Shown here: piece by piece, positions 758-39,798 of the stretch
Layout of the letters: each line of letters starts with the position of its first letter
Position numbering within the stretch: the stretch's first letter is position 1
Assembly (NCBI GenBank): GCA_017461365.1
Contig: JAFTYG010000008.1
Location: 81,908 to 145,907, forward strand
Direction of reading: 5' to 3'
Length of the DNA: 64,000 nucleotides
From: Clostridia bacterium
GTDB taxonomy: Bacteria; Bacillota; Clostridia; Oscillospirales; CAG-272
The notes under the pieces: generated by a model
Told to the model about the DNA's origin: nothing
Seen by the model: the letters and a program-made list of their open reading frames with translations, nothing else
Databases searched by the model: none
Program-made: the position numbers and the translations under genes

Positions 758-774
758 CAGAGTGAGGTGTTGTA

Positions 775-5023: not shown

Positions 5024-5734
5024 ATGCTGGAATTCAGAAACGTATCTTATGCCGCTCCGAACGGCAAGGAGATACTGAAGGATATAAATTTGAAGATAGA
5101 CGATAGGTTCGTTGCTGTTACGGGACCTAACGGAAGCGGTAAATCGACCATGGCGAAGCTGATAGCGGGCATAATTACGCCTAATGAGGGACGTATATTT
5201 ATGGACGGCGTTGATATTACCGATATGTCGATCACTGACAGAGCAAAGAACGGCATAAGCTTTGCCTTTCAACAGCCCGTGCGCTTTAAAGGTATCACCG
5301 TAAAGGATCTTATCTCTCTTGCGGCAGGAAAGAACACTAATATCTCCGAGGCATGCGCGTATCTTTCAGAGGTCGGTCTTTGCGCCAAGGACTATATAAA
5401 CCGCGAGGTTGACGGCTCTTTGTCGGGCGGTGAGCTCAAGCGCATTGAGATCGCCATGATAAACGCGCGGGGAACTAAGCTGTCGGTATTTGACGAGCCT
5501 GAGGCGGGAATCGACCTTTGGAGCTTTAACAACCTTATAAAGGTATTTGAAAATATGTATGAGCGCACAAAGGGAACTATCGTTATAATCTCCCATCAGG
5601 AGCGCATACTCAATATTGCTGACAAGATAGTCGTGCTTGCGGGCGGCACTGTTGCCGAATACGGCGCAAAGGATGACGTATTCCCCAAGCTTATGGACGT
5701 GCAGACGGGCTGTCGCTATACGGCAAAGGTATAA
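5024..5734 (+). CDS. sufC: Fe-S cluster assembly ATPase SufC-like
   Basis: Walker A GPNGSGKST, ABC signature LSGGELKR and Walker B LSVFDEPEAGID are present. Length is 236 aa. A SufB/D-family gene follows directly. Confidence 0.85.
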   Translation: MLEFRNVSYAAPNGKEILKDINLKIDDRFVAVTGPNGSGKSTMAKLIAGIITPNEGRIFMDGVDITDMSITDRAKNGISFAFQQPVRFKGITVKDLISLAAGKNTNISEACAYLSEVGLCAKDYINREVDGSLSGGELKRIEIAMINARGTKLSVFDEPEAGIDLWSFNNLIKVFENMYERTKGTIVIISHQERILNIADKIVVLAGGTVAEYGAKDDVFPKLMDVQTGCRYTAKV

Positions 5735-5744
5735 GGAGGAAGAT

Positions 5745-6662
5745 ATGGATAAGATACAGCAAAAGCTGCTCGAAGAGGTAGCGGGCATACACGAGATACC
5801 CGAGGGGGCTTATTCTCTGCGCATAAACGGAAAGCTCCACGGGAAGAATTCCTCCGAGAATATTGAGGTGGTCAAGAAGGAGGATGCTCCCGGTATTGAT
5901 ATATACGTCAAGGCTGGAACGAAGAACGAGAGCCTCCATATTCCCGTTATCCTTTCACAGACGGGCATCAAGGAGCTTGTGTACAACGATTTTCACATTG
6001 GCGAGGATTGCGACATCACGATAGTTGCGGGATGTGGCATTCACAACGGCGGAGCAGAGGACTCCGAGCATAGCGGAATACATTCATTTTTTGTGTCGAA
6101 AAATGCAAAGGTTAAGTATATAGAGAAGCATTACGGTCAGGGAGACGGAAGCGGAAGGAACGTTATGAACCCTCAGACTTATGTTGAACTTGCTGAAAAT
6201 GCTTATCTTGAAATGGAAACTGCGCAGATAAAGGGCGTTGACTCGACGAAGAGAAGCACAAAGGCGATACTGTCGAAAAATGCAACGCTTATAGTCCACG
6301 AAAAGGTGATGACTCACGGCGAGCAATTTGCCGAGACAGCATTTGAGGTAGAGCTTAACGGCGAGGGCTCGGGCACGCACGTCGTATCGAGATCGGTGGC
6401 GCGTGACCGTTCGTCGCAGAAATTTGTTTCCTGCGTTAAGGGCAATGCGAAGTGCTCTGGACACACCGAGTGTGACGCTATTATAATGGATGATGCGACT
6501 GTCATAGCAGTGCCCGAGATAATGGCGGTCGATCCCGACGCATCTTTGATACACGAGGCGGCTATCGGAAAGATAGCGGGAGAACAGCTTATCAAGCTGA
6601 TGACTCTCGGACTTACCGAAAAAGAAGCTGAGGAAGAGATCGTAAACGGATTTTTAAGATGA
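5745..6662 (+). CDS. SufB/SufD-family Fe-S assembly protein (short, 305 aa)
   Basis: ATG at 5745, 6 nt after AAGGAGGA; the ORF-track start at 5637 overlaps sufC and is rejected. The C-terminal motif HEAAIGKIAGEQLIKLMTLGLTEKEAEEEIVNGF is typical of SufB/SufD. Confidence 0.8.
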   Translation: MDKIQQKLLEEVAGIHEIPEGAYSLRINGKLHGKNSSENIEVVKKEDAPGIDIYVKAGTKNESLHIPVILSQTGIKELVYNDFHIGEDCDITIVAGCGIHNGGAEDSEHSGIHSFFVSKNAKVKYIEKHYGQGDGSGRNVMNPQTYVELAENAYLEMETAQIKGVDSTKRSTKAILSKNATLIVHEKVMTHGEQFAETAFEVELNGEGSGTHVVSRSVARDRSSQKFVSCVKGNAKCSGHTECDAIIMDDATVIAVPEIMAVDPDASLIHEAAIGKIAGEQLIKLMTLGLTEKEAEEEIVNGFLR

Positions 6663-7326
6663 CCGTCTTGTGGCTTGCTGCTGTTGCGGTGAGTTCTTTA
6701 GGCTGAAAGAAAAAAAGAAAACAGAATATGCCGAGGGGCTGTCTTGCGCGATGTGAGGCGGCCTCTTGATTTCTTTTCGGAGTGTAGGATTTTGGTATTT
6801 GCGCTGTGCAGTGGTCACTTTGATGAGTGCGTGAAAAATGGTTGCTCAGAGGCTTGCTTTGGGGCTGTTTGGACTCAAATGTAATAAAATTGAATAAATG
6901 GGAATAAATGTAAAATAAGCGGCGAGAGTTTGTCCTTTTGAACTGTTGAGGGTGAAAAAAATTGAAAACGGCTTGAAAATACGCAAAAAACGCTTTTGTC
7001 GAGGTGTAGAAAATTTGGCTCCAAAATTGTGCAAGGTGCACAAGAATTTTGAAGTTGTTTTTAAACCGGCGAAAAGTTGCGGAGATGGCAGAGGTAAAAA
7101 ATATTTACCATACTGTACCAAAACGAAAGAGGAAATAAAAGTTGAGTAAAAATGTACAAAAATATACGCATTTGGTTTACAGATATGCTTAAATGAGGTA
7201 ATTCTAATTTACCCAAATGTGAACATCAAAATGCAAAATGCAAAAATGACGGTTTTAAAAAAGGCAGATTTTGCCACTCCCGTTTGTGACCGTATTATGT
7301 TTATATGGTGATTTGATTTTGAGTTC

Positions 7327-7355
7327 TTGACTTTTTGACGAAAATGTGGTAAGAT
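7327..7355 (+). promoter_or_regulatory. Candidate promoter of the 14.6-kb ABC-like locus
   Basis: TTGACT, 17 nt, TAAGAT. It would produce a ~265-nt leader before the ATG at 7628. Confidence 0.4.
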
Positions 7356-7627
7356 AACAATACGATTTTACGGCCTTTGGGATATTTGCGTCCCGATCGC
7401 CATCAAAATGGCGCAGAAAGACCCCTGCGTCGGCTTTGAAGTATAGCTTTGGTGTTGTCTTTTGCCTTGTGTGCTTGCAGGTGAAAGTACGCCTGTTGGC
7501 ACTCCGTCGGATCTATGCCTTGATTTCCGTCGGTTACGGCACGAACAAAGGATACTCGAAGTACATTGGTAACAGCCGATGGCAACATCAGGCGAAAAAC
7601 TTCAAAAAATTCACAGGAGGAACTTTT

Positions 7628-10600
7628 ATGAAAAAGGCGAATTTTCTACGAATATCGGCTTTTGCGCTCGCGCTGATCTTTATCATGTCGACCTGCGTGA
7701 TCGCCGTAAGCGCTGACAATTCTTCTACGTCTGACTCTGTGTCGAGTACCACGACCAGCGACATTCAGGAATTGCTCAATGCTATTTCGTACAACGACTA
7801 CATCAGTAATAAAACGGGTGTAGACAAGGCAACGGAAGAGGACGAGGTCACTGTTTCCGCTGTTGAAAACTGGGAGTACGTTCTCAAAAACGGAAATACT
7901 CCCGCAGAAGATGACGACCAGGCAAAGGTGACTGAGGAGTACGGAAAGACAGGTCTTTACATTCCGAGTACGGGAACGGTAACCTGGACAACGACCGCTA
8001 TTACCAAGGCACTGAAATACAATGTGGTCATCGAATACTATCCGGTGGTGAACAAGGCAGCATCTATCGAGAGAGTTCTTTTGATAAACGGCGAGGTGCC
8101 TTTCTCCGAGGCGCGTCAGATGTCTATTGAAAAGGTATGGGCTACAAGCGAGCCTTACGCTGACGTTGATATAAATAACGGAAGCGTTACGCTCAGCGTT
8201 GACGGTAAGGATGCTACAAAGACGGTTGCTGAGTGGATAGCTGAGGCTTCTGCGAACGGCATTGAGGCTGTCGAGACTGAAAAGAAGGTCGGCGGCGAGA
8301 CAAAGCAGGTCCTCAGATACACCATGCCTACGGTGTGGAACGAGACGAACACTGCGTACGTCAACAAGATCGGTATAAGATTTTTCACGACCGATATTGA
8401 TGAAAACGAGATAAGATCGAACCTTGAGGACGATCCCGATTGGTATGAGTACACATTCAAGGACTCCAACGGATTTATGCAGGAGCCCTTCCAGGTAGTA
8501 TTCGAGCCCAACGAGGAGGGTGTTACTGAAATAACTCTCAGATCGGTCAACGAGCCGATAGTTATTTCCGAGATACGCCTTGTGGCTCCAGAGGATACTG
8601 TAACATATGAAGAGTATCTTGCAAAGTATCCGAATGCTCCCAAGGGTACGGGACAGCTCAAGATGGAGGCTGAGTACTTTGCAAATACCTCTTCTCAGAC
8701 CATCTACCCCATTTCCGATAATACAAGTGCTGTTACTTCTCCCGTAGCGGTCGACAGAACGATCCTTAACACGGTGGGCGGTGACAAGTGGCAGTCTGCG
8801 GGACAGTGGATCGAGTATTCCTTCACTGTTACGAGCACCGGTATGTATCAGATAGTTCCGCGCTTCAAGCAGAATCTGCTTGACGGTATGTACACGTCGA
8901 GAATGTTGTACATCTACAGCAGCGACGGAGAGTACGACGGACTTCCTTTCGAGGAGGCGGGCAGACTTAAGTTCGACTATTCCAGCGACTGGCAGGCTGC
9001 TCCCCTTACGGACGGCAACACCGTATTCGAGTTCTATTTTGAAGAGGGTGTTACATACACGCTTCGCTTTGAGATCTCGCTCGGTAAGATGGGCGACATC
9101 GTAAGACGAGTTCAGGAGGCTCTTGACTCGATAAACGATGACTATCTTAATATATTGAAGCTTACAGGCTCGACTCCCGACGAATACCGTGACTACGGAT
9201 TTTACAGAGTTATGCCTGACACGATGGTCGACATGATCATTCAGTCCGACGAGCTTGAGGCTATCTCGGCAGAGCTTACTGCTGAAGCTGAGGTAAAGAG
9301 CTCGATGACGGCTACGCTTGACAAGGTTGCGAGACTCCTTGACCAGATGGGTAAGGACGAGGACGAGGTTGCAAAGAACCTCGAGCAGCTCAAAACCTAC
9401 ATCGGTTCGCTTGGTACTTGGCTCTCCGATGCAAAGACGCAGCCCCTTGTATTTGACTACATCTGCATTCAGTCTTCCGAAGCTGAGCTTCCCAAAGCGA
9501 AGGCGAATATTTTTGAGGCTCTCTGGCACGAGATCAAGGGCTTCGTCACCAGCTTCTTCCGTAACTACGACCGTATGGGTGCTATGACCGAGACGGCGGG
9601 CGAGGAGTCTGTTGAGGTATGGCTTGCTTACGGACGCGACCAGACGCAGGTTATCCGCGGACTTATAAACAACGACTTCACCTACCACGGCGGAGATCCC
9701 ATAAACCTTAAGCTCGTATCGGGCGGAACGCTTCTGCCCTCGATCCTGTCACAGCAGGGACCTGACGTTTACATCGGTCTCGGACAGGGAGACGTTATCA
9801 ACTACGCTATCCGCGGAGCGCTCGTATCTATCGACGATATTCCCGAGCATGAGGAATATAAAGATAATGAAGCGAAGTTCTTTGAGGAGTTCGGTATGAC
9901 TCCCGAGGAGTTCTACGCTGAGTATGAGGATTCGAGAAGCGACTTCAACGAAGCGGCTATGATGGTTCTTGAGATCGAGAACGAGTTTGGTGAGCTTCAC
10001 TGCTACGGACTTCCCGAGACTCAGAACTTCAGCATGATGTTTGTCCGCGAGGACATTCTTGCAGAGCTTAACATCGAGATCCCCAAGACGTGGGACGACG
10101 TTAAGAAGGCGATCCCCGTGCTTCAGGCTAACAACATGCAGATAGGAATGCACAACGACAGTAAGATATTCCTTTACCAGAACGGCGGAGAGCTCTTTGC
10201 CGATGACGGTATGAGAATAAACCTTGACTCGAACGTTGCTCTTGAAGCCTTCACAACGATGTGTGACTTCTTTACGATGTACTCGTTCCCCTATTCCTAC
10301 GATTTTGCTAACCGTTTCAGAACGGGTGAGATGCCTATAGGATTTGCAACCTACACATCCACATACAACCAGCTCAAGGTATTCGCTACCGAGATCGAGG
10401 GACTCTGGTCCTTCTACCCGATGCCCGGTGTTATGGATGCGGAGGGCAACATCAACAACGCATCTGTTTCGTCTGTATCGGCTATAGTAATGATCGTCGG
10501 ATGTGATAACAAGTCGGGCGCGTGGGACTTCATGCGTTGGCACGTTGACGACCAGTGCCAGATAGACTACTCAAAGGAAATGGTAGCTATTCTCGGTCCT

Positions 10601-11233
10601 TCCGCTAAGCACGCAACCGCTAACGAGTCTGCTCTCAAGAGCTTGCCTTGGACGGCTGACGAGCTTGAGCAGCTTGAATATCAGTTCAACAATCTCGCAT
10701 CTATTCCTAACTACCCCGGTAACTACATAGTTGACCGTTACCTTAAGTTCGCGTTCCTTGATGCATACAATGACAATTTGGATCCCGCAAAGGCTATTGA
10801 GTCTTACGTATCCATCATCAACAAGGAGATCGCGCGTAAGCGTGAGGAGTTCAACCTTGAGACACTTCAGTATGGCGACGACGTTTGCCCCACTCTTGCT
10901 AACAAGCGTCTGAGACAGGCTGAGGCTGAGCTCACAAAGTTCAAGAGCTCGTCGGCTTACAGCAGCAGCTATGACGAAACCTACAATATTATAATGAAGC
11001 TTATTGCCAGCCACGAAACGGAGGATTACGCATCGCTCAACGAGCTTGCGGATGCTCTTGAGGAGCAGGTAAAGGCTAATGGCGGCGCGACATACACCGC
11101 AGCCGTAGAGATCGCCGCAAGCAACGATAAGGGCGGAGAGAACAACTCCAATCCTTACGTTTCGGCAGTTCTTGCGATCGAGTATATGAGAGACGCGGCT
11201 AACGCGCTTAAGATATACGAGAATTACAAATAA
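7628..11233 (+). CDS. Giant secreted ABC substrate-binding protein (family-1-like SBP domain) with a ~650-aa N-terminal extension
   Basis: ATG at 7628 after a GGAGGA RBS. Signal peptide MKKANFLRISAFALALIFIMSTCVIAVSA. The C-terminal ~540 aa resemble sugar SBPs (VEVWLAYGRDQTQVIRGLINNDF..., WDDVKKAIPVLQANNMQIGM). The N-terminal part contains CBM6/35-like stretches (MEAEYFAN...GGDKWQSAGQWIEYSFTVTSTGMYQIVPRF) and a coiled-coil linker. Confidence 0.8.
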   Translation: MKKANFLRISAFALALIFIMSTCVIAVSADNSSTSDSVSSTTTSDIQELLNAISYNDYISNKTGVDKATEEDEVTVSAVENWEYVLKNGNTPAEDDDQAKVTEEYGKTGLYIPSTGTVTWTTTAITKALKYNVVIEYYPVVNKAASIERVLLINGEVPFSEARQMSIEKVWATSEPYADVDINNGSVTLSVDGKDATKTVAEWIAEASANGIEAVETEKKVGGETKQVLRYTMPTVWNETNTAYVNKIGIRFFTTDIDENEIRSNLEDDPDWYEYTFKDSNGFMQEPFQVVFEPNEEGVTEITLRSVNEPIVISEIRLVAPEDTVTYEEYLAKYPNAPKGTGQLKMEAEYFANTSSQTIYPISDNTSAVTSPVAVDRTILNTVGGDKWQSAGQWIEYSFTVTSTGMYQIVPRFKQNLLDGMYTSRMLYIYSSDGEYDGLPFEEAGRLKFDYSSDWQAAPLTDGNTVFEFYFEEGVTYTLRFEISLGKMGDIVRRVQEALDSINDDYLNILKLTGSTPDEYRDYGFYRVMPDTMVDMIIQSDELEAISAELTAEAEVKSSMTATLDKVARLLDQMGKDEDEVAKNLEQLKTYIGSLGTWLSDAKTQPLVFDYICIQSSEAELPKAKANIFEALWHEIKGFVTSFFRNYDRMGAMTETAGEESVEVWLAYGRDQTQVIRGLINNDFTYHGGDPINLKLVSGGTLLPSILSQQGPDVYIGLGQGDVINYAIRGALVSIDDIPEHEEYKDNEAKFFEEFGMTPEEFYAEYEDSRSDFNEAAMMVLEIENEFGELHCYGLPETQNFSMMFVREDILAELNIEIPKTWDDVKKAIPVLQANNMQIGMHNDSKIFLYQNGGELFADDGMRINLDSNVALEAFTTMCDFFTMYSFPYSYDFANRFRTGEMPIGFATYTSTYNQLKVFATEIEGLWSFYPMPGVMDAEGNINNASVSSVSAIVMIVGCDNKSGAWDFMRWHVDDQCQIDYSKEMVAILGPSAKHATANESALKSLPWTADELEQLEYQFNNLASIPNYPGNYIVDRYLKFAFLDAYNDNLDPAKAIESYVSIINKEIARKREEFNLETLQYGDDVCPTLANKRLRQAEAELTKFKSSSAYSSSYDETYNIIMKLIASHETEDYASLNELADALEEQVKANGGATYTAAVEIAASNDKGGENNSNPYVSAVLAIEYMRDAANALKIYENYK

Positions 11234-11277
11234 TCACCGTAACTATTCTATAAATACTTTAAGAAGGAGAAAAAAGT

Positions 11278-12225
11278 ATGTCCCCCAAAACGGCAAAGAA
11301 AAAAGCTGTGGCGCGTAAGGATATGTCCAGACTTGCCTGGACATGGAAGGAAATGAAGCGCAACTGGGTAGCCTATCTGATGGTTGCTCCGTACATGCTT
11401 ATATTTACCTGCTTTACGATCTTGCCTGTTGTGCTGTCCATAGTGCTCAGCTTCACAGACTTTAACCTGCTTCAGCTGCCTAATATTGTCTGGTTTGATA
11501 ACTATATCAGACTTTTCCTTGATGATGACATATTCCTCATTGCGGCGCAGAACACGCTGATATTTGCGGCGATAGTCGGACCTGTATCATATTTCATGTC
11601 CCTCCTTATCGCTTGGTTCATCAACGAGCTCTCACCGAAGATAAGAGCTGTCGTAACTCTTATCTTCTACGCTCCCTCAATTTCAGGTCAGGTCTACCTC
11701 GTATGGAAAACGCTCTTCTCGAGTGACTCCTACGGTTGGGCTAATGCTTGGCTTATGGAGCTTGGAATAATTTCAAAAGAAATAGCTTGGTTTGAGGACG
11801 CCGACTACGTTATGCCTCTTTGTATAGTAGTCGCGCTCTGGACCTCGCTCGGTACTGCATTCCTTTCCTTCATCGCGGGCTTGCAGGGTATCGACAAAGC
11901 GCAGTATGAGGCCGGCGCTGTTGACGGTATCAAGAACAGATGGCAGGAGCTTTGGTACATAACGCTTCCCAACATGAAGCCTCAGCTTATGTTCGGTGCG
12001 GTAATGGCTATTACAAACTCCTTTGGTTTCGGCGGAGTCGTTACGGCTCTCTGCGGATTCCCCTCAGTTGACTATGCTGCGCACACCATCGTCCACCATC
12101 TTGAGGACTACGGTTCACAGCGTTTCGAAATCGGTTACTCTTCAACCATCGCAGTTGTGCTCTTCGTGGTAATGATAGGCGCGAATGCTTTGGTAAAGAA
12201 GGTACTTTCAAAGGTAGGATCGTGA
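11278..12225 (+). CDS. Carbohydrate ABC transporter permease (MalF/LplB-like), pair 1
   Basis: AAGGAG RBS, multiple TM segments and the EAA loop LQGIDKAQYEAGAVDGIKNRWQELWYITLPNMKP. Confidence 0.9.
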   Translation: MSPKTAKKKAVARKDMSRLAWTWKEMKRNWVAYLMVAPYMLIFTCFTILPVVLSIVLSFTDFNLLQLPNIVWFDNYIRLFLDDDIFLIAAQNTLIFAAIVGPVSYFMSLLIAWFINELSPKIRAVVTLIFYAPSISGQVYLVWKTLFSSDSYGWANAWLMELGIISKEIAWFEDADYVMPLCIVVALWTSLGTAFLSFIAGLQGIDKAQYEAGAVDGIKNRWQELWYITLPNMKPQLMFGAVMAITNSFGFGGVVTALCGFPSVDYAAHTIVHHLEDYGSQRFEIGYSSTIAVVLFVVMIGANALVKKVLSKVGS

Positions 12226-12226
12226 T

Positions 12227-13102
12227 ATGGCAAGAAAGTTAAGAACAAGAAAACATAAGGTCGTGCTTGCCCGTTCCAGAAGCGGTGACTTCGGTATAAC
12301 GGTCCTGTTGGTACTCCTCGGAGCATTTATGTTCCTTCCTATGTACTACGTCGTTATTCAGTCGCTCAAGCCTCTCGACGAGCTTTGGATGTTCCCTCCG
12401 AGATTTTACGTTACACGTCCGACATTTAAGAACTTTAAGGATCTGTTCACTTTGATGAGCGGAAACCTCGTACCTTTTTCAAGATACATATTCAACACGG
12501 TATTTACATCGGTTGCCGGTACCTTCGGAAACCTGTTCCTCTCCTCCATGGCGGCTTACGCAATGGCTAAGATCAAGTTCCCCGGCGGTAAGATGATGTT
12601 TAAGACGGTAAGAACGTCTCTTATGTTCCACCAGACCGTTACGGCGGTTTGTTGCTTCATTCTTATGAGTGCGTTCAAGATGATCGATACCTATTGGGCT
12701 ATCATAGTTCCCGCGTGGGCTACCTCGCTCGGACTATACCTTATGAAGCAGTTCATGGAGACCGGTGTTACCAACGCGGTGCTTGAGAGCTCGCGTTTGG
12801 ACGGCGCAAGTGAGTTGCGAACATTCTGGACGATAGCGATGCCGATGGTTAAGCCCGCGTGGCTGACGCTTATCGTTTACTGTTTCCAGGATCTCTGGAA
12901 CAAGGGTGCGTCCATCTACATCCACTCCGAGCAGCTCAAGTCGCTCAACTACGCTATCCAGCAGATAACTGCCGGAGGTATCAAGCGTGCGGGCGCCAGC
13001 GCGGCGGCGACGGTCGTCATGATGATCGTTCCTATTCTCGTATTCGTTATATCTCAGTCCAATATCATTGAGACCATGGGATCGAGCGGTATGAAAGACT
13101 AA
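12227..13102 (+). CDS. Carbohydrate ABC transporter permease (MalG/LplC-like), pair 1
   Basis: The start lies 1 nt after the upstream stop. EAA loop ESSRLDGASELRTFWTIAMPMVKP. Confidence 0.9.
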   Translation: MARKLRTRKHKVVLARSRSGDFGITVLLVLLGAFMFLPMYYVVIQSLKPLDELWMFPPRFYVTRPTFKNFKDLFTLMSGNLVPFSRYIFNTVFTSVAGTFGNLFLSSMAAYAMAKIKFPGGKMMFKTVRTSLMFHQTVTAVCCFILMSAFKMIDTYWAIIVPAWATSLGLYLMKQFMETGVTNAVLESSRLDGASELRTFWTIAMPMVKPAWLTLIVYCFQDLWNKGASIYIHSEQLKSLNYAIQQITAGGIKRAGASAAATVVMMIVPILVFVISQSNIIETMGSSGMKD

Positions 13103-13122
13103 TCTTACAGAGGAGGAGAAAA

Positions 13123-15459
13123 ATGAAAAAGATAGCAGCAATTATTTGCGTATTGTTTGCGTTGGTCATGGTTTTGGCTCTCCCTGTAAGTGCGGCAACT
13201 CCTTATCAGACCTATACGTACTCTATAGGCGGAACGGCGCTTTACTCGCCTGACGCTTACGTTCCCTCGAAGAACATCGACGCGACGTATATGGGCCTTG
13301 ATGATGCAGATTTCCTTTGCAAGTATCATAGCGATCTGGCTACTGCCCGCGACAAGCTGGCTGAGACAGAGGCGGTGCTTGCGGAAGCCGCAGAGCTCTA
13401 CGCAACGACTGACAAGAATTATACTCAGGCTCAGTCGGCTTACAACACGGCTAACAAGACATATACCGATCTTTACAAGAGCTACAGTAAAATATCAAGT
13501 CCCTCCGATATAGAGGTTGACGACGAAGGCAACGTATATATCGCGGACACGGGTAACAGTCGAATCATCGTACTCGACCGTTACTACAACGTAAAGTTTA
13601 TCATCGCAAGCTTCCTTAACAGACAGGGAATTATGGACGGTCTGAACAAGCCTAAGGGCGTGTACATAACCTCCGACAAGCCCCTTGAGGATAAGGAAGG
13701 TAAGATATACGTGTGCGACACAGAGGCGTACCGTATAGTTACGTTTGACCGCGAGGGTAACTTTATCGACATCATTCCGAAGCCCGAGTCTGAGCTTTTC
13801 GATTCGAGCTCGGTCTACAAGCCCGTTGCGGTTGCAGTTGATAACTACGACAGACTTTACGTCGTATCCTCAACTACCTACCAGGGTATCATCGTTATGA
13901 CAGAGGCTGGTGAATTCACCGGATTTGTCGGTGCGCAGAAGGTTACTATCTCGGCTTGGGACAGAATTTGGAGAAATTTCCAGACCGAAGAGCAGAGAGA
14001 GCTTTCTCAGTCCTACGTTTCCACCGAGTTCAACAACATAACGCTTACAGGTGACTTTATCTACGTTACCACATCCTCTATTTCGGAGGCGAACGTAATT
14101 TCGTCCTTGACCTCGACCTCGGGTGACTACGCTCCCGTTAAGATGCTGAACGCGTCGGGCGATGAGATCATGAGACGTAACGGCTTCTTCTCTCCCTCGG
14201 GTGAGGTTGACCATGCAAAGGTAAAGACCTCCGACACTATCTACGGAGCATCCACCGTTGTTGACGTTGCCGTCGGCCCTGAGAAGACGTGGTCGATCAT
14301 CGACCAGAAGCGAAGCAAGGTATTTACCTATGACTTTGACGGTAATCTTCTCTTTGCTTTCGGTGATATGGGACGTCAGCTCGGTAACATTTCTCAGAAA
14401 GGTCTTGCGGGTATCGTTTATCAGGGCGACAATATGCTTCTTTTGAACGCTACCGACGCTACTTTCACTGTTTACAACAGAACAGAGTACGGCGACGTAC
14501 TTATTCAGGCGTTGCAAAATCAGAACAACCGTCAGAACGACCAGGCTATCAAGGACTGGAAGGAGATACTGAAGAGAAACTCCAACTTTGACGCGGCGTA
14601 CATCGGAATAGGTAACGCTCTGTCCAATCAGAACAAGTATGAAGAATCTCTTACATACTATAAGGCTGCTTACGACACCGCTAACTACTCCACATCTTAT
14701 GCGGAGCTGAGAAAGACTTGGATCTCCAAGTATATTCTTCTCATTCCCGTATTCGTTATCGCGTTGGTATTTGCAATCAGCAAGTTCCTCGGATATTCGA
14801 AGAAGCTGAACAAGCGTGTTTCTACGTCGAGAGAAAAGCGTACCTTCTGGCAGGAGATCATGTTCGCGTTCCACGTCATATTCCATCCCTTTGACGGTTT
14901 CTGGGATATGAAGCATGAAAAGAGAGGCTCTCTCAGAGCTGCGATAACTATTCTTGCCGTAACGATAGCAGGCTTCTACTATCAGAATATCGGTCAGGGA
15001 TACATTATGAATCCTACGGGCGCTTATTCGACGATATTCTCGACGATAACGAGCGTACTTGTTCCTCTCTTCCTTTGGGTAGTCGCTAACTGGTGTCTTA
15101 CCACGCTGTTTGACGGCGAGGGAAGCTTCAAGGATATTTTCATCGCTACCTGTTACGCGCTGACACCTATGCCCATCATCATGATACCCGCTACTATCGC
15201 ATCGAACTTCATCCTTGCGAGTGAGACCGGAATACTTTCTCTCATCATAACGATAGCGTTTATCTGGGCAGGAATACTTATATTCTTTGGAACAATGGTC
15301 ACACACGATTACTCTATGGGTAAGAACGTGATAACGACTCTTGGAACTATTGTGGGAATGGTAATCATAATGTTTATTGCGATACTGTTCTCCACGCTTC
15401 TCGGAAAGCTCGTAAGCTTTGCTACAAACATAGTGACCGAGCTACAATACCGAATGTAA
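13123..15459 (+). CDS. Membrane protein: signal peptide, coiled coil, NHL-like beta-propeller, TPR, C-terminal Yip1-like multi-TM domain
   Basis: GGAGGAG RBS. Signal peptide ending LPVSA. NHL-like blades are visible (DIEVDDEGNVYIADTGNSRIIVLD; GKIYVCDTEAYRIVTFDREGNF; VAVDNYDRLYVV). TPR-like stretch AYIGIGNALSNQNKYEESLTYYKAAYD. About 6 hydrophobic helices lie in the last 230 aa, with a Yip1-type layout. Confidence 0.7.
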   Translation: MKKIAAIICVLFALVMVLALPVSAATPYQTYTYSIGGTALYSPDAYVPSKNIDATYMGLDDADFLCKYHSDLATARDKLAETEAVLAEAAELYATTDKNYTQAQSAYNTANKTYTDLYKSYSKISSPSDIEVDDEGNVYIADTGNSRIIVLDRYYNVKFIIASFLNRQGIMDGLNKPKGVYITSDKPLEDKEGKIYVCDTEAYRIVTFDREGNFIDIIPKPESELFDSSSVYKPVAVAVDNYDRLYVVSSTTYQGIIVMTEAGEFTGFVGAQKVTISAWDRIWRNFQTEEQRELSQSYVSTEFNNITLTGDFIYVTTSSISEANVISSLTSTSGDYAPVKMLNASGDEIMRRNGFFSPSGEVDHAKVKTSDTIYGASTVVDVAVGPEKTWSIIDQKRSKVFTYDFDGNLLFAFGDMGRQLGNISQKGLAGIVYQGDNMLLLNATDATFTVYNRTEYGDVLIQALQNQNNRQNDQAIKDWKEILKRNSNFDAAYIGIGNALSNQNKYEESLTYYKAAYDTANYSTSYAELRKTWISKYILLIPVFVIALVFAISKFLGYSKKLNKRVSTSREKRTFWQEIMFAFHVIFHPFDGFWDMKHEKRGSLRAAITILAVTIAGFYYQNIGQGYIMNPTGAYSTIFSTITSVLVPLFLWVVANWCLTTLFDGEGSFKDIFIATCYALTPMPIIMIPATIASNFILASETGILSLIITIAFIWAGILIFFGTMVTHDYSMGKNVITTLGTIVGMVIIMFIAILFSTLLGKLVSFATNIVTELQYRM

Positions 15460-15483
15460 ACAGATAGGAGGTAGATTTTAATA

Positions 15484-18400
15484 ATGAAAGTAATAAAGTT
15501 AATATCGACTCTCTTGGCTGTTCTTATGCTTGCGAGCGCGTTTACCATATTGGCGAGCGCTGAAACATCCCAAACAAGCGGTCCTGTATATTCCACCCTC
15601 ACGGGTAACGGAAATTCCCTTATGAAATATGATAAGGAAACCGATACGTACGCGTACAAGACGGGTGAATATCTGGATGCTGAGGGTAAAACTCAGGTAG
15701 TCGATTCTGCGGAAGAAAAGATCGCGCTTATGGACTACCGCTACGGCACCGATAAATATGAGCTGTACGTTGATGCGTACAGCGGAGAAGTAGCCATCCG
15801 TTCGAAGGCTACGGGCGAGACACTTTTCACTAACCCCTACAACATAGGTCAGTCCAAGGCTACCGCATCTGACGGCAGTACGAAGGATGAGATCATGTCC
15901 CAGCTGATAGTTCACTATACTGATGTTAAGGCTGACACAAGCGGTACGCTTTACAGCTACACATGGGCGGCTGTCAGAAAGCAGATATCGGTAATGAACA
16001 TCAAGGGCGGTATTCGTGTAGAATACACCATCGGACGCGAGGAAAGCAAGAGCCTTTTGCCCCGTATGATCGAGGCTACGGCTATGGAAGAGATCTTCGC
16101 TACCATCGAAGCGAACATGGAGGCTGCAATTGCGGCGGGCACGATCGCTGAGAGCAAGGTAAAGGATGAAAGACACAGACTCGAGCAGTTCAAGGCTTAC
16201 TACTCAAGATACAGTCTTGACGATGCGATAAACCAGGAAATGCATGACAAGTACTGCCAGGACTATCCCATCCTTGAGAAGTTCGAGCAGCTTGCAGCGA
16301 CAGATCCCACCTATGAGGGCTTTGCGATCTACGTGCTCGACGAGGCAAACATGGGTGAGCAGACCATCAAGAAGCAGGAGGCTCTTATCAAGGAGTACTG
16401 CAAGGAATACACCTTCCAGGACATGGAAGAGGATCATGCTTACGTAGAGTATGAGGCTGAAACAGAGAACTATCCTCTGTTCAAGATGGCTCTTGAGTAC
16501 ACCGTTGAGGACACGGGACTTGTTGTAAGACTTCCCGCAAACGGTATCCGTTTCAACGAGTCTCTCTACCGTCTCGACTATATCGAGATACTCCCTTACA
16601 TGGGAGCAGGTATGAACCCCAACGAGGGTTACACCTTCTTCCCCGACGGTTCGGGAACGCTCTTTGATTTCCAGGAGATCGCAATTCTCGGAACACGTCA
16701 GCTTATCTCGGGTAAGGTTTACGGTCAGGATTACGCTTACCATGAGGTATCCGGTATGTATGAGGAGGTTATCCGTTATCCCGTTTACGGTGTTTATGAG
16801 AAGGAAAATCTCACAAAGACCGAGACCGACGCTGACGGAAACGAGACTACCGTTGAATACACAAAGGATCGCGGATTTGTAGCGATCGTTGAAGAGGGTG
16901 ACTCTCTTATCGAGCTTTCCTCCTCTCACGGCGGCGTTGCGAGTGAGTACAACACCGTAAGACTTTCGGTGTACCCCAGACCTACCGACTCTTATAACAT
17001 CGCAGATGCTATCTCGGTCGGTTCGAACACCGAGTGGACGGTCGTTTCGGCAAGAAAGTACACGGGCAGCTACAAGGTGCGTTACATAATGCTTACCGAG
17101 GACGAGATCGCCAAGGAGGCTAACGCTAAGGCGATAGCTGAGGGCGGAGTTGCCGAGACTTACTATGAGCCTTCTTACGTTGGTATGGCTCTTGCATACC
17201 GCGACTATCTTGAGAAGGATCTCAAGGTACTTACAAGACTTACATCCGAGGACGTAAGCGATGATATTCCTCTTTACATTGAGGTATTCGGAGCTTTGGA
17301 GACCACGGAAAAATTCCTTTCGATCCCGATCGACGTAATGACGCCTTTGACGACCTTTGAGGACATAAAGACTATGTACACTAACCTCAAGGATCTTGGC
17401 GACAACTCGATCACAAACGTAAACTTCATTATGAAGGGCTTTACCGACGGCGGTCTTACAAGTCCTTCCGTACCGTACAATCTCAAGTGGGAGAGCGCGG
17501 TATCCAAGGAGATGGATTTTGAGGAGCTCACCGAATACGCAAAGCAGGAGGGCTTTGGACTTTTCCCTGATTTTGATTTCGTATTCTACTCCACAAATAC
17601 TCTCTTTGACGGACTCAATGCCAACAAGCATTCCGCAAAGACAATCGACGGACGTTACACAAGTAAGCGTGAATACAGCGCGACAAAGCACACATACGTA
17701 AGCTACTATGAGCTTGCGCTCTCTTCCGCATACTTCAGCCACTTCTATGAGAAGTTCGTACCCAAGTATGAAAAATACTCGCCTATCGGTATTTCAGTAG
17801 CATCTCTCGGATCCTACCTGAACTCCGACTTTGACGAGGATGAGCCTTACAACCGCGCTGACAGCCAGAAGTACACCGAAGAGGCATTCGCTTACATTGA
17901 GAGCGAGCTCGAGGGTACTGAGATAATGACATCGGGCGGTAACGCGTACTCCTGGAAGTACGTTGACCACATCACAGACATCGCACTTGACTCCAGCCGC
18001 TTCTCGATCTCCTCTGCATCTGTTCCTTTCCTCGGAATAGTGCTTCACGGATACATCGAGATCGCAGGTACGCCTATCAACATGGAAGGTAACCTTGACT
18101 ATGCGTTCCTGAAGTCGCTCGAAAGCGGTTCTGCACTGAAGTTCATACTTTCCTACCGCAACACCGAAAAGCTCAAGGATTATGAAACGCTCAGCCAATA
18201 CTACTCTGTGAACTATGACATCTGGTACGATAACGGCAACGGAGATCTCGTTACTATGTATCACGCTCTCAATGACGTTCTCGCGGACGTTCAGACGAGC
18301 ACCATAATCGGTCATGAGTTTATTGAGGGTGTTCGTGTTCCCGACGATGATGAGCTTATGCTTGACGCTGAGCAGGCTATCAAGGACGCTATCGAGTATG

Positions 18401-19815
18401 AGATAGCTCTTGAGAATGCTACAAGCGAGAGCGAAAGAAAGGCTATCTACGAGGCAAGACAGCTTGTTATCAAGGGTAGCGAGATATTGAAGAATGCTAT
18501 CGATCGTACAAACGCAGACAGTCTGATGTCTAAGATCGCGGCTCTCAACGGTATTTACGGTGCTCCCGAGAGCGAACTCAAGGCACGCATCGCTGACGCT
18601 GAGAAGGTGCTTGAGGAATATCAGGCAGTTCAGCAGTTCCATGCTATCTATTCTGATATTTCGACAAATGCATTTGGCGATGCTCACAATACTGTTTACA
18701 AGGTCGAGGATGCTATAAAGGCTTACGAGGCGTACAAGGTTGCGTCTGACGATGCCGACAAGAAGGCAGCTTGGGAAAAATACGCTGCTATTCTCGGCGC
18801 TGATTACTCCGCAAAGCTCGTTGCAATGCTTGATGCTAAGGCTGCTTCCAAGGCGGCTCCCGATGATGCGGCTCTCAAGGCTGCATACGAGGCTGCTACA
18901 GCGGCTCTCAACGGACTCAACGCAGGATATGCTGTTGACGCTTACGATGCTATCAAGGCTATGAAGGAGCTCGAGCCCTACAAGCAGGCTTATATCACTG
19001 CGAGCGCAGGAACCGATGCTGAGGCTACCGCTGCGGCAAAGGCTGCGTTTGAGACTAAGCTTGCAGAAATTTACTCTTCCGAGCTTATTGGAAATTCTGT
19101 TTACAGCATCACATACGGCGGCACTGCAATAGGCGGCTCTCAGTTCAACCGTAATGCTAAGAAGACAGCGTATTCCGAGGCAACAGCAGCTGTTGATGCA
19201 GCTCTTAACGAGCTTTACACAGCGGCAGGTGAGGTAAAGGATGCTCAGGAGCTTCTTGACGAGGTATATACTCTCGCGGCTATCAAGGACGCGCTTGCTC
19301 TCATCAACGAGAAAGAGGCGTTCAGCTCTGAGGAGCGCGCAAAGCTCGTTGCTATCTGCGCAGGGCTTGAGACTTATATGCAGACAAACGCTCTTGCATA
19401 TGATGCTATCTTCGATTACGACGTTATGGATAACATAAACGCCGCTGTTGAGGATTATAAGGCTCTATATGATGCGACTGTTAAGGCAGGAACGCCTCAG
19501 GCTACATTCGATCCGATTAAAGACTACGAAATAGATAAGTTGAATACAGATGTGACCAAGTACTTCACATCTCCCGAGTTCAGCTGGACCGAGAAGATCG
19601 TTGAAGAGGATGAGTCTTCGGTATCCGTCGCAAAGCCCGTACCCAACACTAAGAAATATGAGTCCGACAACAACATGATAGTTCACGAGACGTTTGACAA
19701 CGGAAAGGAATTCCTCCTCAACTTCAACGACTACCGTGTTACTGTTGAACTGAACGGTACGGTTTATACCCTTGACGCTTATGGATACATCGTTATCAAA
19801 GCGGCTAACGCATAA
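15484..19815 (+). CDS. 1443-aa secreted protein of unknown function (possibly DUF5696-like) with an Ala-rich helical C-terminal region
   Basis: AGGAGG RBS. Signal peptide MKVIKLISTLLAVLMLASAFTILASA. No catalytic motif was recognised. The central part alternates strand- and helix-like segments (IEVFGALETTEKFLSIPIDVMTPLTTFEDIKTMY...). Residues ~960-1340 are Ala/Glu/Lys-rich. The DUF5696 assignment is a recollection, not verified. Confidence 0.6.
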   Translation: MKVIKLISTLLAVLMLASAFTILASAETSQTSGPVYSTLTGNGNSLMKYDKETDTYAYKTGEYLDAEGKTQVVDSAEEKIALMDYRYGTDKYELYVDAYSGEVAIRSKATGETLFTNPYNIGQSKATASDGSTKDEIMSQLIVHYTDVKADTSGTLYSYTWAAVRKQISVMNIKGGIRVEYTIGREESKSLLPRMIEATAMEEIFATIEANMEAAIAAGTIAESKVKDERHRLEQFKAYYSRYSLDDAINQEMHDKYCQDYPILEKFEQLAATDPTYEGFAIYVLDEANMGEQTIKKQEALIKEYCKEYTFQDMEEDHAYVEYEAETENYPLFKMALEYTVEDTGLVVRLPANGIRFNESLYRLDYIEILPYMGAGMNPNEGYTFFPDGSGTLFDFQEIAILGTRQLISGKVYGQDYAYHEVSGMYEEVIRYPVYGVYEKENLTKTETDADGNETTVEYTKDRGFVAIVEEGDSLIELSSSHGGVASEYNTVRLSVYPRPTDSYNIADAISVGSNTEWTVVSARKYTGSYKVRYIMLTEDEIAKEANAKAIAEGGVAETYYEPSYVGMALAYRDYLEKDLKVLTRLTSEDVSDDIPLYIEVFGALETTEKFLSIPIDVMTPLTTFEDIKTMYTNLKDLGDNSITNVNFIMKGFTDGGLTSPSVPYNLKWESAVSKEMDFEELTEYAKQEGFGLFPDFDFVFYSTNTLFDGLNANKHSAKTIDGRYTSKREYSATKHTYVSYYELALSSAYFSHFYEKFVPKYEKYSPIGISVASLGSYLNSDFDEDEPYNRADSQKYTEEAFAYIESELEGTEIMTSGGNAYSWKYVDHITDIALDSSRFSISSASVPFLGIVLHGYIEIAGTPINMEGNLDYAFLKSLESGSALKFILSYRNTEKLKDYETLSQYYSVNYDIWYDNGNGDLVTMYHALNDVLADVQTSTIIGHEFIEGVRVPDDDELMLDAEQAIKDAIEYEIALENATSESERKAIYEARQLVIKGSEILKNAIDRTNADSLMSKIAALNGIYGAPESELKARIADAEKVLEEYQAVQQFHAIYSDISTNAFGDAHNTVYKVEDAIKAYEAYKVASDDADKKAAWEKYAAILGADYSAKLVAMLDAKAASKAAPDDAALKAAYEAATAALNGLNAGYAVDAYDAIKAMKELEPYKQAYITASAGTDAEATAAAKAAFETKLAEIYSSELIGNSVYSITYGGTAIGGSQFNRNAKKTAYSEATAAVDAALNELYTAAGEVKDAQELLDEVYTLAAIKDALALINEKEAFSSEERAKLVAICAGLETYMQTNALAYDAIFDYDVMDNINAAVEDYKALYDATVKAGTPQATFDPIKDYEIDKLNTDVTKYFTSPEFSWTEKIVEEDESSVSVAKPVPNTKKYESDNNMIVHETFDNGKEFLLNFNDYRVTVELNGTVYTLDAYGYIVIKAANA

Positions 19816-19832
19816 GAAAGGAGAGGTTGACA

Positions 19833-20795
19833 ATGACAAATCAAATGAGTGTTAAACCTGCAAAGAGAAGAAAAGCAGCCTCTCTTGACAAGAGAAAGGC
19901 GCGCGGCGGATGGCTGTTCGTCGCCCCCTTCGTCATCGGATTTCTGTTTATATATCTTCCTATAATCATTGACTCCATCTCGTACAGCTTCTGTACAATG
20001 AAGGTGCTCGGAGGCGGAGCAAAGCCTGTATTTGAGTTTGTAGGATTTGAGAACTATCACGAAGCGCTGTTTGTAAATCCCGACTACGTCGAGACCTTGC
20101 TGACGGGCTTGCAGAACATGGCGTTCGATATTCCTATGATCCTTATATTCTCGCTCTTTATGGCTGTTCTTCTTAACCAGAAGATGGCGGGACGCGCTGT
20201 TTTCCGTGCTATATTCTTTATCCCCGTTATCCTTGCTACGGGTGTTATGGAGTCCATTGAGGCTCAGAACATCATGGGCGACTACATGGAGGAAGCGGGC
20301 GGTATCGACGACGGTTCGGGACAAAGTACCGCCAGTGATATTGTAAGCTCGATGGACGTCGAACAACTATTCGCGGGAATGGCGATAGGTGAAGGTCTTG
20401 TTGAGTACGTTACTACGGCTATCAACAATATCTACAACATCGTTAACCGTTCGGGTGTTCAGATGCTGATATTCCTTTCGGGACTTCAGTCTATCTCTCC
20501 CGCTATTTACGAGTCGGTACAGATCGACGGCGCTTCCGCTTGGGAGACCTTCTGGAAGATCACCTTCCCGATGATAAGCCCGATGATCCTTGTAAACGCG
20601 GTTTATACTATCATCGACTCTTTTACGACCGACTCCAACGTGGTCATGTCCTTTATATCCGAGCAGTACAACCAGCCTAACGGTAACGTTGTCAGCTCGG
20701 CGATGGCGTGGATGTACTTCCTCATTGTTATAGCGATAATCGCTATCGTGGCAGGTATCTTCTCGGCATTCGTATTCTACCAGAGACGAGATTAA
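19833..20795 (+). CDS. Carbohydrate ABC transporter permease, pair 2
   Basis: ATG at 19833, 6-7 nt after AAAGGAGAGG; the TTG at 19827 is less likely. EAA loop LSGLQSISPAIYESVQIDGASAWETFWKITFP. An acidic/Gly-rich loop insertion is present (MEEAGGIDDGSGQSTASDIVSSMD). Confidence 0.85.
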   Translation: MTNQMSVKPAKRRKAASLDKRKARGGWLFVAPFVIGFLFIYLPIIIDSISYSFCTMKVLGGGAKPVFEFVGFENYHEALFVNPDYVETLLTGLQNMAFDIPMILIFSLFMAVLLNQKMAGRAVFRAIFFIPVILATGVMESIEAQNIMGDYMEEAGGIDDGSGQSTASDIVSSMDVEQLFAGMAIGEGLVEYVTTAINNIYNIVNRSGVQMLIFLSGLQSISPAIYESVQIDGASAWETFWKITFPMISPMILVNAVYTIIDSFTTDSNVVMSFISEQYNQPNGNVVSSAMAWMYFLIVIAIIAIVAGIFSAFVFYQRRD

Positions 20796-20807
20796 GGAGG
20801 TGAAAAA

Positions 20808-21935
20808 ATGAACGCACAAAATATTGATAACAAACCCACAGTGAAAAAGAACACGAAAAGAAAAATTCGCGTTGATTTTGAGCGTGCGCCTCTTTGGGAT
20901 AGATTGAAGGCAAAATTCCTTTCACTCTTCTTCTTGAAAAAGGTAGTTTGGTACGTTTTCCGTCTGGTACTGCTGGTCGGTATCTCTTACATCGTTCTGT
21001 TCCCGTTCTTCACAAAGATCGCGGGCTCCTTTATGGCTCCCGAGGACTTCGTTGACGTAACGGTAAGACTTATACCTAAGACATTCTCGGTTGAGATGTA
21101 CACGGCAATATGGGTAGAGCAGGAATATATGTCGGCGTTTATCAACACCTTCTTCCTCTCGGTGAGCACGGCGCTTATACAGACCTTTATCTGCTGTCTT
21201 GTAGCTTACGGACTTGCTAAGTTTAAGTTCAAGGGCAACAAGCTCGTATTCCTGGCGGTCATCCTCTCTTTGACGATACCTCACCAGACCTTGCAGCTCT
21301 CGCTCTTTATGAAGTTCCTTGACTTCGATATTCTCGGAATTGTCAAGTTCTTCAACGGAGGCGGAATTGAGATATTCGGTCATACCTTCTTTGAAGGTCT
21401 GATAGATATTATTCCTTCGTCCACAACGGGAATCTGGTCGAGATTCCAGGACGGCTACGGAGTTACGCTTACGAACTCCTTCTGGCCTCTCATCATCCTC
21501 TCCCTTTCGGGACTTGCATTTAAGAACGGACTTTACATCTTTATGCTTCGTCAGTTCTTCAGAGGCGTTCCCGATGAGCTTGAGGAGTCGGCGTATATCG
21601 ACGGTTCGGGTATTATGCGTACATTCTTTACCATAATCCTTCCTCTGTCGGTGCCTATGATGATAACGGTATTCCTGTTCTCGTTCTCCTGGCAGTGGAC
21701 AGACGAGTTCTACACGGGACTCTTCTTCACCTCCACGACAGATACGTTGCTTATGCCCGATATTATCGGTATCCCCGCGTCGCTCGTAACAGACTACGCA
21801 GGTCAGAACCTGTACTATTCGGCAATACGCAATACCTGCGGACTTATGATAATTGCTCCGTTGATCGTTATGTACCTCTTCTGCCAAAGATATTTGGTTC
21901 AGGGTATCGAACGTTCGGGACTTACCGCAGACTAA
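20808..21935 (+). CDS. Carbohydrate ABC transporter permease, pair 2 (extended, 375 aa)
   Basis: AAGGAGG RBS. EAA loop ESAYIDGSGIMRTFFTIILPLSVP. It has a ~50-aa basic N-terminal extension and an extra loop insertion relative to typical ~280-aa MalG-type permeases. Confidence 0.85.
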   Translation: MNAQNIDNKPTVKKNTKRKIRVDFERAPLWDRLKAKFLSLFFLKKVVWYVFRLVLLVGISYIVLFPFFTKIAGSFMAPEDFVDVTVRLIPKTFSVEMYTAIWVEQEYMSAFINTFFLSVSTALIQTFICCLVAYGLAKFKFKGNKLVFLAVILSLTIPHQTLQLSLFMKFLDFDILGIVKFFNGGGIEIFGHTFFEGLIDIIPSSTTGIWSRFQDGYGVTLTNSFWPLIILSLSGLAFKNGLYIFMLRQFFRGVPDELEESAYIDGSGIMRTFFTIILPLSVPMMITVFLFSFSWQWTDEFYTGLFFTSTTDTLLMPDIIGIPASLVTDYAGQNLYYSAIRNTCGLMIIAPLIVMYLFCQRYLVQGIERSGLTAD

Positions 21936-21945
21936 TACAAATAAA

Positions 21946-21980
21946 AAATCGCTCACCCCGTTGGGGTGGGCGATTTTTCA
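21946..21980 (+). terminator. Intrinsic terminator closing the ABC-like locus
   Basis: A 12-bp stem atcgctcacccc/ggggtgggcgat with loop gttg, followed by TTTT. Confidence 0.8.
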
Positions 21981-39475: not shown

Positions 39476-39523
39476 GGTAAAATTCCTTTCTTGAACTTGA
39501 AAATTTGAAGAAATCCATATAAA

Positions 39524-39776: not shown

Positions 39777-39798
39777 AATTATATGTATCTTTGACATA

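Follow-up and report, generated by a model that had tools for sequence, protein, structure and literature searches.

The seven-gene block g1-g7, encoded in a 64,000-nt stretch of contig JAFTYG010000008.1 from a Clostridia bacterium (GCA_017461365.1, positions 81,908 to 145,907 of the forward strand; hereafter the window), is a CUT1-type ATP-binding cassette (ABC) importer locus whose accessory parts are unusual, conserved and unstudied. All seven open reading frames (ORFs) are co-directional on the + strand between positions 7628 and 21935 and encode, in order, a giant solute-binding protein (SBP), a first pair of permeases, an NHL-TPR-Yip1 membrane protein, a secreted DUF5696 protein and a second pair of permeases (Table 1). 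The reading that we favor, with rather more confidence than doubt, is that the locus is a surface glycan capture, processing and import system built around CUT1 importers. An initial annotation, made from the sequence alone, had proposed such a machine by likeness to polysaccharide utilization loci (PULs), and it gains support from the predicted fold of g5, a part of the SBP that resembles a carbohydrate-binding module (CBM), the conservation of the whole cassette, a MalK-type ATPase beside its Paenibacillus counterpart, and glycoside hydrolase family 43 (GH43) and two-component system genes beside its Butyrivibrio counterpart. No study of the seven-gene cassette was apparent in the searchable literature.

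Gene order was surveyed with one genome per GTDB species; 375 species possessed a close relative and 80 loci were compared, to which all identities and gene orders given below for gut Clostridia refer, informative loci being those with enough contig. The order and strand of g1-g2-g3-g4-g5-g6-g7 were kept in every informative locus, down to 43% identity of g5. A tblastn search of annotated plasmids with the DUF5696 core revealed the same cassette in two cultured organisms, Butyrivibrio fibrisolvens D1 (pNP243) and Paenibacillus cellulosilyticus (plasmid-borne). The Butyrivibrio locus opens with a divergent histidine kinase and response regulator pair and a GH43 gene; then come the genes for a 977-aa giant SBP, a first permease pair, separate NHL and YIP1 proteins, an 839-aa DUF5696 protein, a second permease pair and, last, two ordinary SBPs. 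The Paenibacillus locus consists of a 'UgpC' ATPase, a giant SBP (986 aa), two permeases, an NHL-YIP1 protein (719 aa), a DUF5696 protein (757 aa) and two permeases. The Butyrivibrio GH43 protein has no signal peptide, its two extra SBPs carry classic lipoboxes, and the ATPase directly upstream of the Paenibacillus cassette is of the MalK type (ABC_tran, OB_MalK and TOBE_2 domains). For each of the seven proteins, the best match within either distant locus occupies the equivalent place in the gene order (Table 1). As judged from sequence and gene order, the cassette is an old, co-inherited unit of Bacillota, found in both Clostridia and Bacilli and not peculiar to the source organism. The Paenibacillus cassette is followed immediately downstream (L085, 15874-25097) by a run of genes for LLM-class flavin-dependent oxidoreductases, four in number, and by genes for two further SBPs and an NADPH-dependent oxidoreductase.

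The earlier assignment of four ABC permeases forming two heterodimer pairs was borne out by the detection of BPD_transp_1 in g2, g3, g6 and g7, each pair containing one MalF-type and one MalG-type member; the best NCBIfam matches of the four are UgpA/UgpE, MalF/MalG and GlcT/GlcU. Canonical EAA loops are present in g3 (ESSRLDGASELRTFWTIAMP), g6 and g7, and the loop of g2 is an EAG variant, one residue longer. Identity across the pairs is low (26% between g6 and g2, 22% between g7 and g3). Because each permease best matches the same position in Butyrivibrio and Paenibacillus, the two pairs were distinct already in the common ancestor. Across the 80 loci, identities amount to 73-95% for g2, 75-92% for g3 and 54-93%, mostly 56-81%, for g6/g7.

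The g1 protein is secreted, with a signal peptide that ends in a VSA-type signal peptidase I site and lacks a lipobox. In its AlphaFold2 (AF2) model (pLDDT 79.4), beta-sandwich domains on the N-terminal side precede a CBM35-like module and a helical bundle; the CUT1-type SBP fold comes next, and another helical bundle lies at the C-terminus. Three approaches agree on the SBP domain noticed in the initial annotation. The modeled fold matched oligosaccharide SBPs in Foldseek (template modeling (TM) scores of 0.70-0.77), the ligands of these matches being beta-1,2-gluco-oligosaccharide, cycloisomalto-oligosaccharide, cycloalternan, maltodextrin and acarbose; its profile matched Lin1841 (E 6e-10); and an excised 487-aa segment was recognized in Pfam as SBP_bac_8 (4.9e-16) and SBP_bac_1 (7e-14). 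The full-length protein of 1201 aa matched no Pfam or NCBIfam family at E 0.01, a case in which the length and multidomain build of a protein can mask clear domain matches in a full-length scan. Pfam assigned no domain to the N-terminal ~310 aa. The module at residues 342-489 was compared as a profile of 12 orthologues, including those of Butyrivibrio and Paenibacillus, and matched the CBM35 chain 5x7g, a cycloisomaltooligosaccharide glucanotransferase (E 6e-5), and, more weakly, other CBM35/CBM6 chains (E 0.07-1); a likeness to CBM6/35, for which a search had been advised, was seen by profile comparison and not with the Pfam CBM models, which gave no match in g1. Anchoring of g1 as a lipoprotein was considered and rejected, since a lipobox-like Cys occurs in just 13 of 120 homologues. 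The Butyrivibrio and Paenibacillus orthologues likewise have no lipobox, and with g1 free of a lipobox, something else must, on the sequence evidence, hold it at the surface.

The AF2 model of g5 residues 28-1000 (pLDDT 79.8, pTM 0.72) has at its N-terminus a beta-sandwich that contains a helical subdomain, followed by another sandwich and a TIM barrel, with beta strands at the C-terminus. Compared with the PDB by Foldseek, the model matched best the GH129-like 3,6-anhydro-D-galactosidase DagB (5opq; E 4e-18, TM 0.57 normalized to the target), followed by NagBb of GH129 (5wzr; E 8e-12), YihQ of GH31 (5aed; E 1e-10), and then GH36 alpha-galactosidases and GH97. The fold relatives of g5 act on alpha-linked sugars. 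The model-based search suggested for this 1443-aa protein thus returned catalytic folds (DagB, NagBb, GH31 and GH36) and is consistent with the earlier view of an unrecognized glycan-active enzyme, having a predicted glycoside hydrolase (GH) architecture and standing outside the characterized families by sequence. That g5 lies outside these families, and that the gene order recurs in relatives, were the two points on which the initial annotation had staked its proposal. The last 54 aa of g5 weakly resemble a GH C-terminal domain, Glyco_hydro_42C (E 6.6e-4), and have an aligned counterpart at the C-terminus of the short orthologues from Butyrivibrio and Paenibacillus.

The acidic residues of g5 that are conserved among 146 family representatives include D388, D416 and D502, which lie in the sandwich, and, from the barrel, E600, D698, D782/D784, D793 and E880. 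D388, D416, D782 and E880 are identical in all three distant orthologues, and D782, which follows predicted barrel strand 4, is invariant from the window to Paenibacillus, down to 23% identity. Its position in the model would correspond to the one where related enzymes carry their nucleophile. DagB itself consists of a beta-sandwich, a TIM barrel and a C-terminal Ig-like domain, and its activity depends on Asp486, on Glu517 and on Asp202 contributed by the partner subunit of the dimer (PMC5698469). The same three-part plan is shared by g5 with DagB and NagBb and, loosely, with GH31 and GH36, as is, in the model, a conserved Asp after predicted strand 4; g5 differs from these enzymes by an identity of only about 10%, by the lack of any link in hidden Markov model or profile comparisons, by the extra N-terminal helical subdomain, by a 440-aa insertion in this clade, and by being secreted and set in a transporter cassette. 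The Ala/Glu-rich helical insertion varies in length and sequence among relatives, its profile matches being coiled-coil noise, and it is missing from the Paenibacillus (757 aa) and Butyrivibrio (839 aa) orthologues. Since the flanks HEFIEG and IVHETFDNG are adjacent in these short orthologues, where the C-terminal segment follows directly after the 'HE(F/L)' strand, residues 956-1395 are a clade-specific insertion inside a beta-hairpin of the DUF5696 C-terminal domain.

More than 1700 homologues of g5 were found in a set of 5.8 billion proteins, all of them unnamed or 'hypothetical' and derived from metagenome-assembled genomes of gut Clostridia, and the DUF5696 family comprises 3798 clusters at 50% identity (E up to 1e-3). 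Pfam scans of 22 long or distant DUF5696 proteins revealed no anchoring, binding or other known domain, and searches of the literature for DUF5696, PF18952 and combinations of Yip1, NHL and SBP returned nothing relevant. DUF5696 has a realistic chance of being a new glycoside hydrolase family.

In g4, a signal peptide is followed by an extracellular NHL beta-propeller, a TPR region (468-522), a membrane-spanning helix (531-559) and the Yip1 domain (583-753), which is multi-pass. The hydropathy of the protein agrees, with a signal and a large ectodomain ahead of a single transmembrane helix and the multi-pass part. It has more than 4000 homologues; all of the 120 listed carry Yip1, nearly all together with NHL and/or TPR. 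The NHL and YIP1 parts are fused in the window and in Paenibacillus, and in Butyrivibrio they are encoded by two genes, one for an NHL protein ending in a transmembrane helix and one for a separate YIP1 protein, which argues that the two parts work together. The earlier description of g4 as a conserved, membrane-anchored partner agrees with these domains and with its position, kept in all loci and occupied by the split pair in Butyrivibrio. A Yip1 protein of Bacillus, YknW, modulates assembly of the YknXYZ ABC transporter (PMC4887032) and is the only bacterial precedent found in the searchable literature for Yip1 alongside an ABC transporter.

The features described above were delimited as listed in Table 1, and the initial description of seven closely spaced co-directional genes bounded by one promoter and one strong terminator was recovered in full. 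Successive intergenic gaps from g1 to g7 are 44, 1, 20, 24, 11 and 12 nt, and promoter- or terminator-like matches within the block are weak and no more frequent than in shuffled sequence. The g1 start codon is an ATG preceded by a strong AGGAGG site; an alternative TTG start at 7436, which gives a longer in-frame upstream ORF, was discarded as an artefact of the ORF-listing rule. By hydropathy, g1 and g5 have an N-terminal signal sequence only. The terminator is built of an A-tract, 16-nt stem arms with one G-U pair and one mismatch, a 3-nt loop and a U-tract.

Table 1. Coordinates of the features of the g1-g7 locus within the window, with protein identities to the corresponding genes of the two distant cassettes
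Feature	Position	Strand	Size	Basis or description	Identity, Butyrivibrio	Identity, Paenibacillus
Sigma-A type promoter	7327-7355	+		TTGACT-17-TAAGAT, TG extension; consensus scan		
Structured 5' leader	7362-7627	+	~266 nt	Ends in AGGAGG ribosome-binding site		
Leader hairpins	~7379-7394, 7410-7431, 7576-7591	+		Covariation among relatives		
Unpaired conserved leader motifs	UUUGAAGUAUA 7435-7445; GGUGUUGYC 7451-7459	+		Conservation		
g1, giant SBP	7628-11233	+	1201 aa		34%	28%
CBM35/CBM6-like beta-sandwich module of g1	8651-9094 (residues 342-489)	+		12-orthologue profile		
CUT1-type SBP fold of g1	residues ~607-1074	+		AF2 model, Foldseek, excised-segment Pfam		
g2, MalF/UgpA-type permease, first pair	11278-12225	+	315 aa	BPD_transp_1; UgpA/GlcT-like NCBIfam	60%	42%
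g3, MalG/UgpE-type permease, first pair	12227-13102	+	291 aa	BPD_transp_1; UgpE/MalG-like NCBIfam	57%	32%
g4, NHL-TPR-Yip1 membrane protein	13123-15459	+	778 aa	Pfam Yip1 1.5e-17, NHL 2.6e-9, TPR	31-43%	27%
g5, secreted DUF5696 protein with glycoside-hydrolase-like head	15484-19815	+	1443 aa	Pfam DUF5696 E 1e-122	25%	23%
Ala/Glu-rich helical insertion in g5	18349-19668 (residues ~956-1395)	+	~440 aa	Ortholog comparison		
g6, MalF/UgpA-type permease, second pair, extracellular insertion	19827-20795	+	322 aa	BPD_transp_1	43%	34%
g7, MalG/UgpE-type permease, second pair, extracellular insertion	20808-21935	+	375 aa	BPD_transp_1	39%	25%
Bidirectional intrinsic terminator	21944-21979	both		AAAAAUCGCUCACCCC-GUU-GGGGUGGGCGAUUUUU hairpin; inverted-repeat search and terminator scan		

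Of 54 related loci, 41 have the promoter pattern TTGAC-N-TGnTAnnAT about as far from g1 as in the window, and the 5' untranslated regions of related loci are mostly 220-320 nt long. The leader of the window folds with a z-score of -3.2 relative to shuffled sequences. Naive alignment of 29 leaders yielded no consensus fold, and a tighter set of 21 relatives gave one; in this set all three hairpins carry compensatory substitutions (paired cells, 89% versus 77% in shuffled alignments; 0/500), double changes affect 13 of the 15 base pairs, pairing falls to 30-45% when the partners are slid, and the unpaired motifs UUUGAAGUAUA and GGUGUUGCC are strongly conserved. A covariance model built for the leader matched once per locus, upstream of g1 only and in closer relatives only, and an Rfam search of the leader and the upstream spacer returned no match. 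On this covariation and conservation, the 5' leader is a candidate cis-regulatory element. The spacer between the Suf terminator and the promoter measures ~660 nt and contains conserved blocks, which could be operator sites or a small RNA. One such block (6990-7046), GTGTAGAAAATTTGG...AAATTGTGCAA..TGC(A/G)CAAAAA, is common to the related loci L001, L064 and L069, and a palindrome, GGTAAAAAATATTTACC (7096-7112), is common to the window, L001 and L002. Another, perfect palindrome, TTGTGCAAGGTGCACAA (7027-7043), was dismissed as an operator, its exact form being absent from all 85 loci.

In the proposed mechanism, a single transcription unit would encode the extracellular and membrane parts of a glycan importer system. 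The g5 protein would cleave an extracellular glycan, probably at an alpha-linked bond and in exo fashion; g1 would hold the polymer through its CBM-like module and pass the oligosaccharide to g2/g3; and g6/g7 would form a second translocon for another product, the second permease pair of Butyrivibrio directly preceding two ordinary lipoprotein SBPs. As the sole membrane-anchored protein with an ectodomain, g4 may tether or organize g1 and g5 beside the permeases, by analogy with YknW and YknXYZ. Energy would be supplied by a shared ATPase of the MsmX/MsmK/MalK type encoded elsewhere. Within this clade, the strong conserved promoter would drive the operon and the structured leader may tune it, in place of a neighboring regulator. 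As to the substrate, the GH43 gene gives a hint for Butyrivibrio itself, namely plant glycans that contain arabinose or xylose. A bolder version, which we regard as possible but put at clearly less than an even chance, is that the cassette represents a new class of system, in which an NHL-TPR-Yip1 scaffold, an unlipidated CBM-bearing SBP, a DUF5696 enzyme founding a new GH family and two translocons would form a fixed, utilisome-like supercomplex across Bacillota, serving in this clade a constitutive core function under a new leader RNA.

Several observations weigh against a role in glycan capture, processing and import. Besides SufC, no protein of the 64-kb window combines a Walker A with an ABC signature motif. 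Sub-segments of g5 matched no GH family in Pfam at E 10, and DUF5696 has no detectable sequence tie to any GH family; moreover, D388, D416 and D502, among the most conserved acidic residues of g5, sit in the beta-sandwich and not in the barrel, and model confidence drops below 50 around residues 827-838, in a conserved acidic loop. The SufBD and alanyl-tRNA synthetase (AlaRS) neighbors are kept at many related loci, and with no regulator and a strong promoter the cassette has, within the clade, the look of core genome. Finally, g2/g3 are 73-95% identical among loci, compared with 67-82% for AlaRS and 71-92% for SufBD of the same species, a constraint that seems unusually strong for sugar permeases or accessory nutrient loci. 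In addition, phmmer and a 65-sequence profile of g5 gave coiled-coil noise only when compared with the PDB, and hhalign comparison with E. coli YihQ (GH31) returned a probability of 0.1%.

On the first of these points the initial annotation needs a correction. Its statement that no ATPase or regulator belongs to the locus holds: housekeeping genes lie on both sides (SufBD and SufC before it, AlaRS downstream on the opposite strand), no regulator gene was found among them, and SufC is the sole ABC ATPase in the 64 kb. The gap is not an anomaly, because Firmicute sugar importers are documented to share MsmX/MsmK-type ATPases encoded elsewhere (PMC7658222, PMC5730181, PMC4519317) and a MalK-type ATPase lies upstream of the Paenibacillus cassette; by analogy, the absence is ordinary for such importers. 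Within the locus itself, Pfam detected no recognized carbohydrate-active enzyme (CAZyme).

The core-like setting suggests the main rival explanation, which we consider unlikely overall: that the cassette has a housekeeping role in the envelope, recovering or remodeling a glycopolymer that belongs to the cell surface itself, be it wall polysaccharide, capsule or S-layer glycan, with g5 trimming the polymer and the importers recycling the fragments. Its placement between SufBD and AlaRS in many species of the clade, the near-consensus, conserved promoter without a regulator, the exceptional identity of g2/g3 relative to AlaRS and the long helical projection on g5 are all in line with such a role. 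The distant cassettes, however, point the other way: in Butyrivibrio it resides on a plasmid-like replicon beside a GH43 gene, a sugar-type two-component system and extra lipoprotein SBPs, as is typical of a nutrient locus, and in Paenibacillus it is likewise carried on a secondary replicon, while the CBM35-like module and the oligosaccharide-type SBP suit foraging equally well.

The sequence isolation of g5 bears on the second rival, improbable in our estimation, according to which DUF5696 is a catalytically dead, GH-shaped binder or scaffold, the cassette imports ready-made oligosaccharides, and g4 and g5 are only receptors or organizers. This would explain why g5 has no sequence tie to any GH family and no assignable acid/base residue, and it fits the low model confidence at one conserved acidic loop and the 22 long family members devoid of any other known domain. 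Nevertheless, the invariant pattern of Asp, Glu, His and aromatic residues, D782 included, persists to 23% identity and resembles an active site more than a scaffold, and the dependence of DagB catalysis on Asp202 from the N-terminal region of the partner monomer makes the sandwich Asp residues of g5 compatible with catalysis. Chance juxtaposition of two unrelated permease pairs and unrelated surface proteins is effectively refuted by the identical order and strand in every informative locus and the position-specific orthology in two distant genera, together with gaps of 1-44 nt and with just one conserved promoter and one strong terminator, placed at the ends.

Read as a glycan capture, processing and import system, the locus resembles four kinds of known system, each in part. 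With CUT1 importers such as those served by MsmX of B. subtilis and streptococcal MsmK it shares MalF/MalG permeases with EAA loops, a cluster-B oligosaccharide SBP and the absence of an in-operon ATPase; it differs in having two different permease pairs in one cassette, two additional obligatory partners (NHL-Yip1 and DUF5696) and an SBP of about three times the usual size, which bears a CBM35-like module and helical bundles and, departing from the lipobox-tethered SBP that is the CUT1 norm in Gram-positives, is not a lipoprotein. Gram-positive PULs (gpPULs), for example the bifidobacterial extracellular GH101 enzyme with its galacto-N-biose/lacto-N-biose (GNB/LNB) ABC importer, have in common with the window an extracellular GH-like enzyme coupled to an SBP-dependent importer, whereas the window has no regulator or recognized CAZyme, its core is fixed and ancient and not mosaic, and its Yip1/NHL membrane component is absent from described gpPULs. 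The Butyrivibrio locus, which combines a transporter with a cytoplasmic GH43 and a two-component regulator, does correspond to a gpPUL. Bacillus YknWXYZ likewise encodes a Yip1-domain membrane protein with an ABC transporter, which that protein is thought to organize (PMC4887032), but YknYZ is a MacB-type exporter working with a membrane fusion protein, whereas the window permeases are MalFG-type importers, no membrane fusion protein is present and Yip1 is joined in one protein with a large ectodomain of NHL and TPR parts. The fourth likeness, to DagB and NagBb, is confined to g5 and has been described above.

For DUF5696, a large family with no characterized member, the GH-like fold and the fixed partner genes lead to a concrete and testable function. 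The locus also points to accessory parts that sugar ABC importers are not known to have, namely a Yip1/NHL membrane protein, an unanchored giant SBP and a second translocon. The occurrence of the cassette in the culturable P. cellulosilyticus and B. fibrisolvens makes genetics and biochemistry feasible, and in uncultured gut Clostridia, where it looks core and strongly expressed, its function may say what these abundant animal-gut organisms live on.

Other features of the window were recorded alongside the locus. The Suf pair (5024-6662) is minimal, with a SufC of 236 aa and a short SufBD-core protein, whose ORF as listed (341 aa) overlaps SufC and is annotated with ~305 aa in relatives; the Suf pair followed by the cassette forms a conserved neighborhood among relatives. 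A glycosidase-like protein of the (alpha/alpha)6 'glutaminase A' type, 654 aa long and with GtaA six-hairpin (E 4e-126), DUF5127 and DUF4964 domains, is encoded at 2281-4245 on the - strand, opposite to that of the locus and 3.4 kb upstream of it. Long stop-free antisense ORFs on the - strand, at 7646-9688, 13870-15306, 16204-17742 and 20922-21956 (680, 478, 512 and 344 aa, respectively), overlie g1, g4, g5 and g7; their translations are of low complexity and rich in Arg, Ser and Val, and they seem to reflect the codon pattern of the sense strand and not to be genes. The only match in the window at the Rfam gathering level is a lysine riboswitch (RF00168; 68 bits, E 1e-15) at 39606-39780 on the - strand, upstream of a 373-aa ORF (38582-39703).

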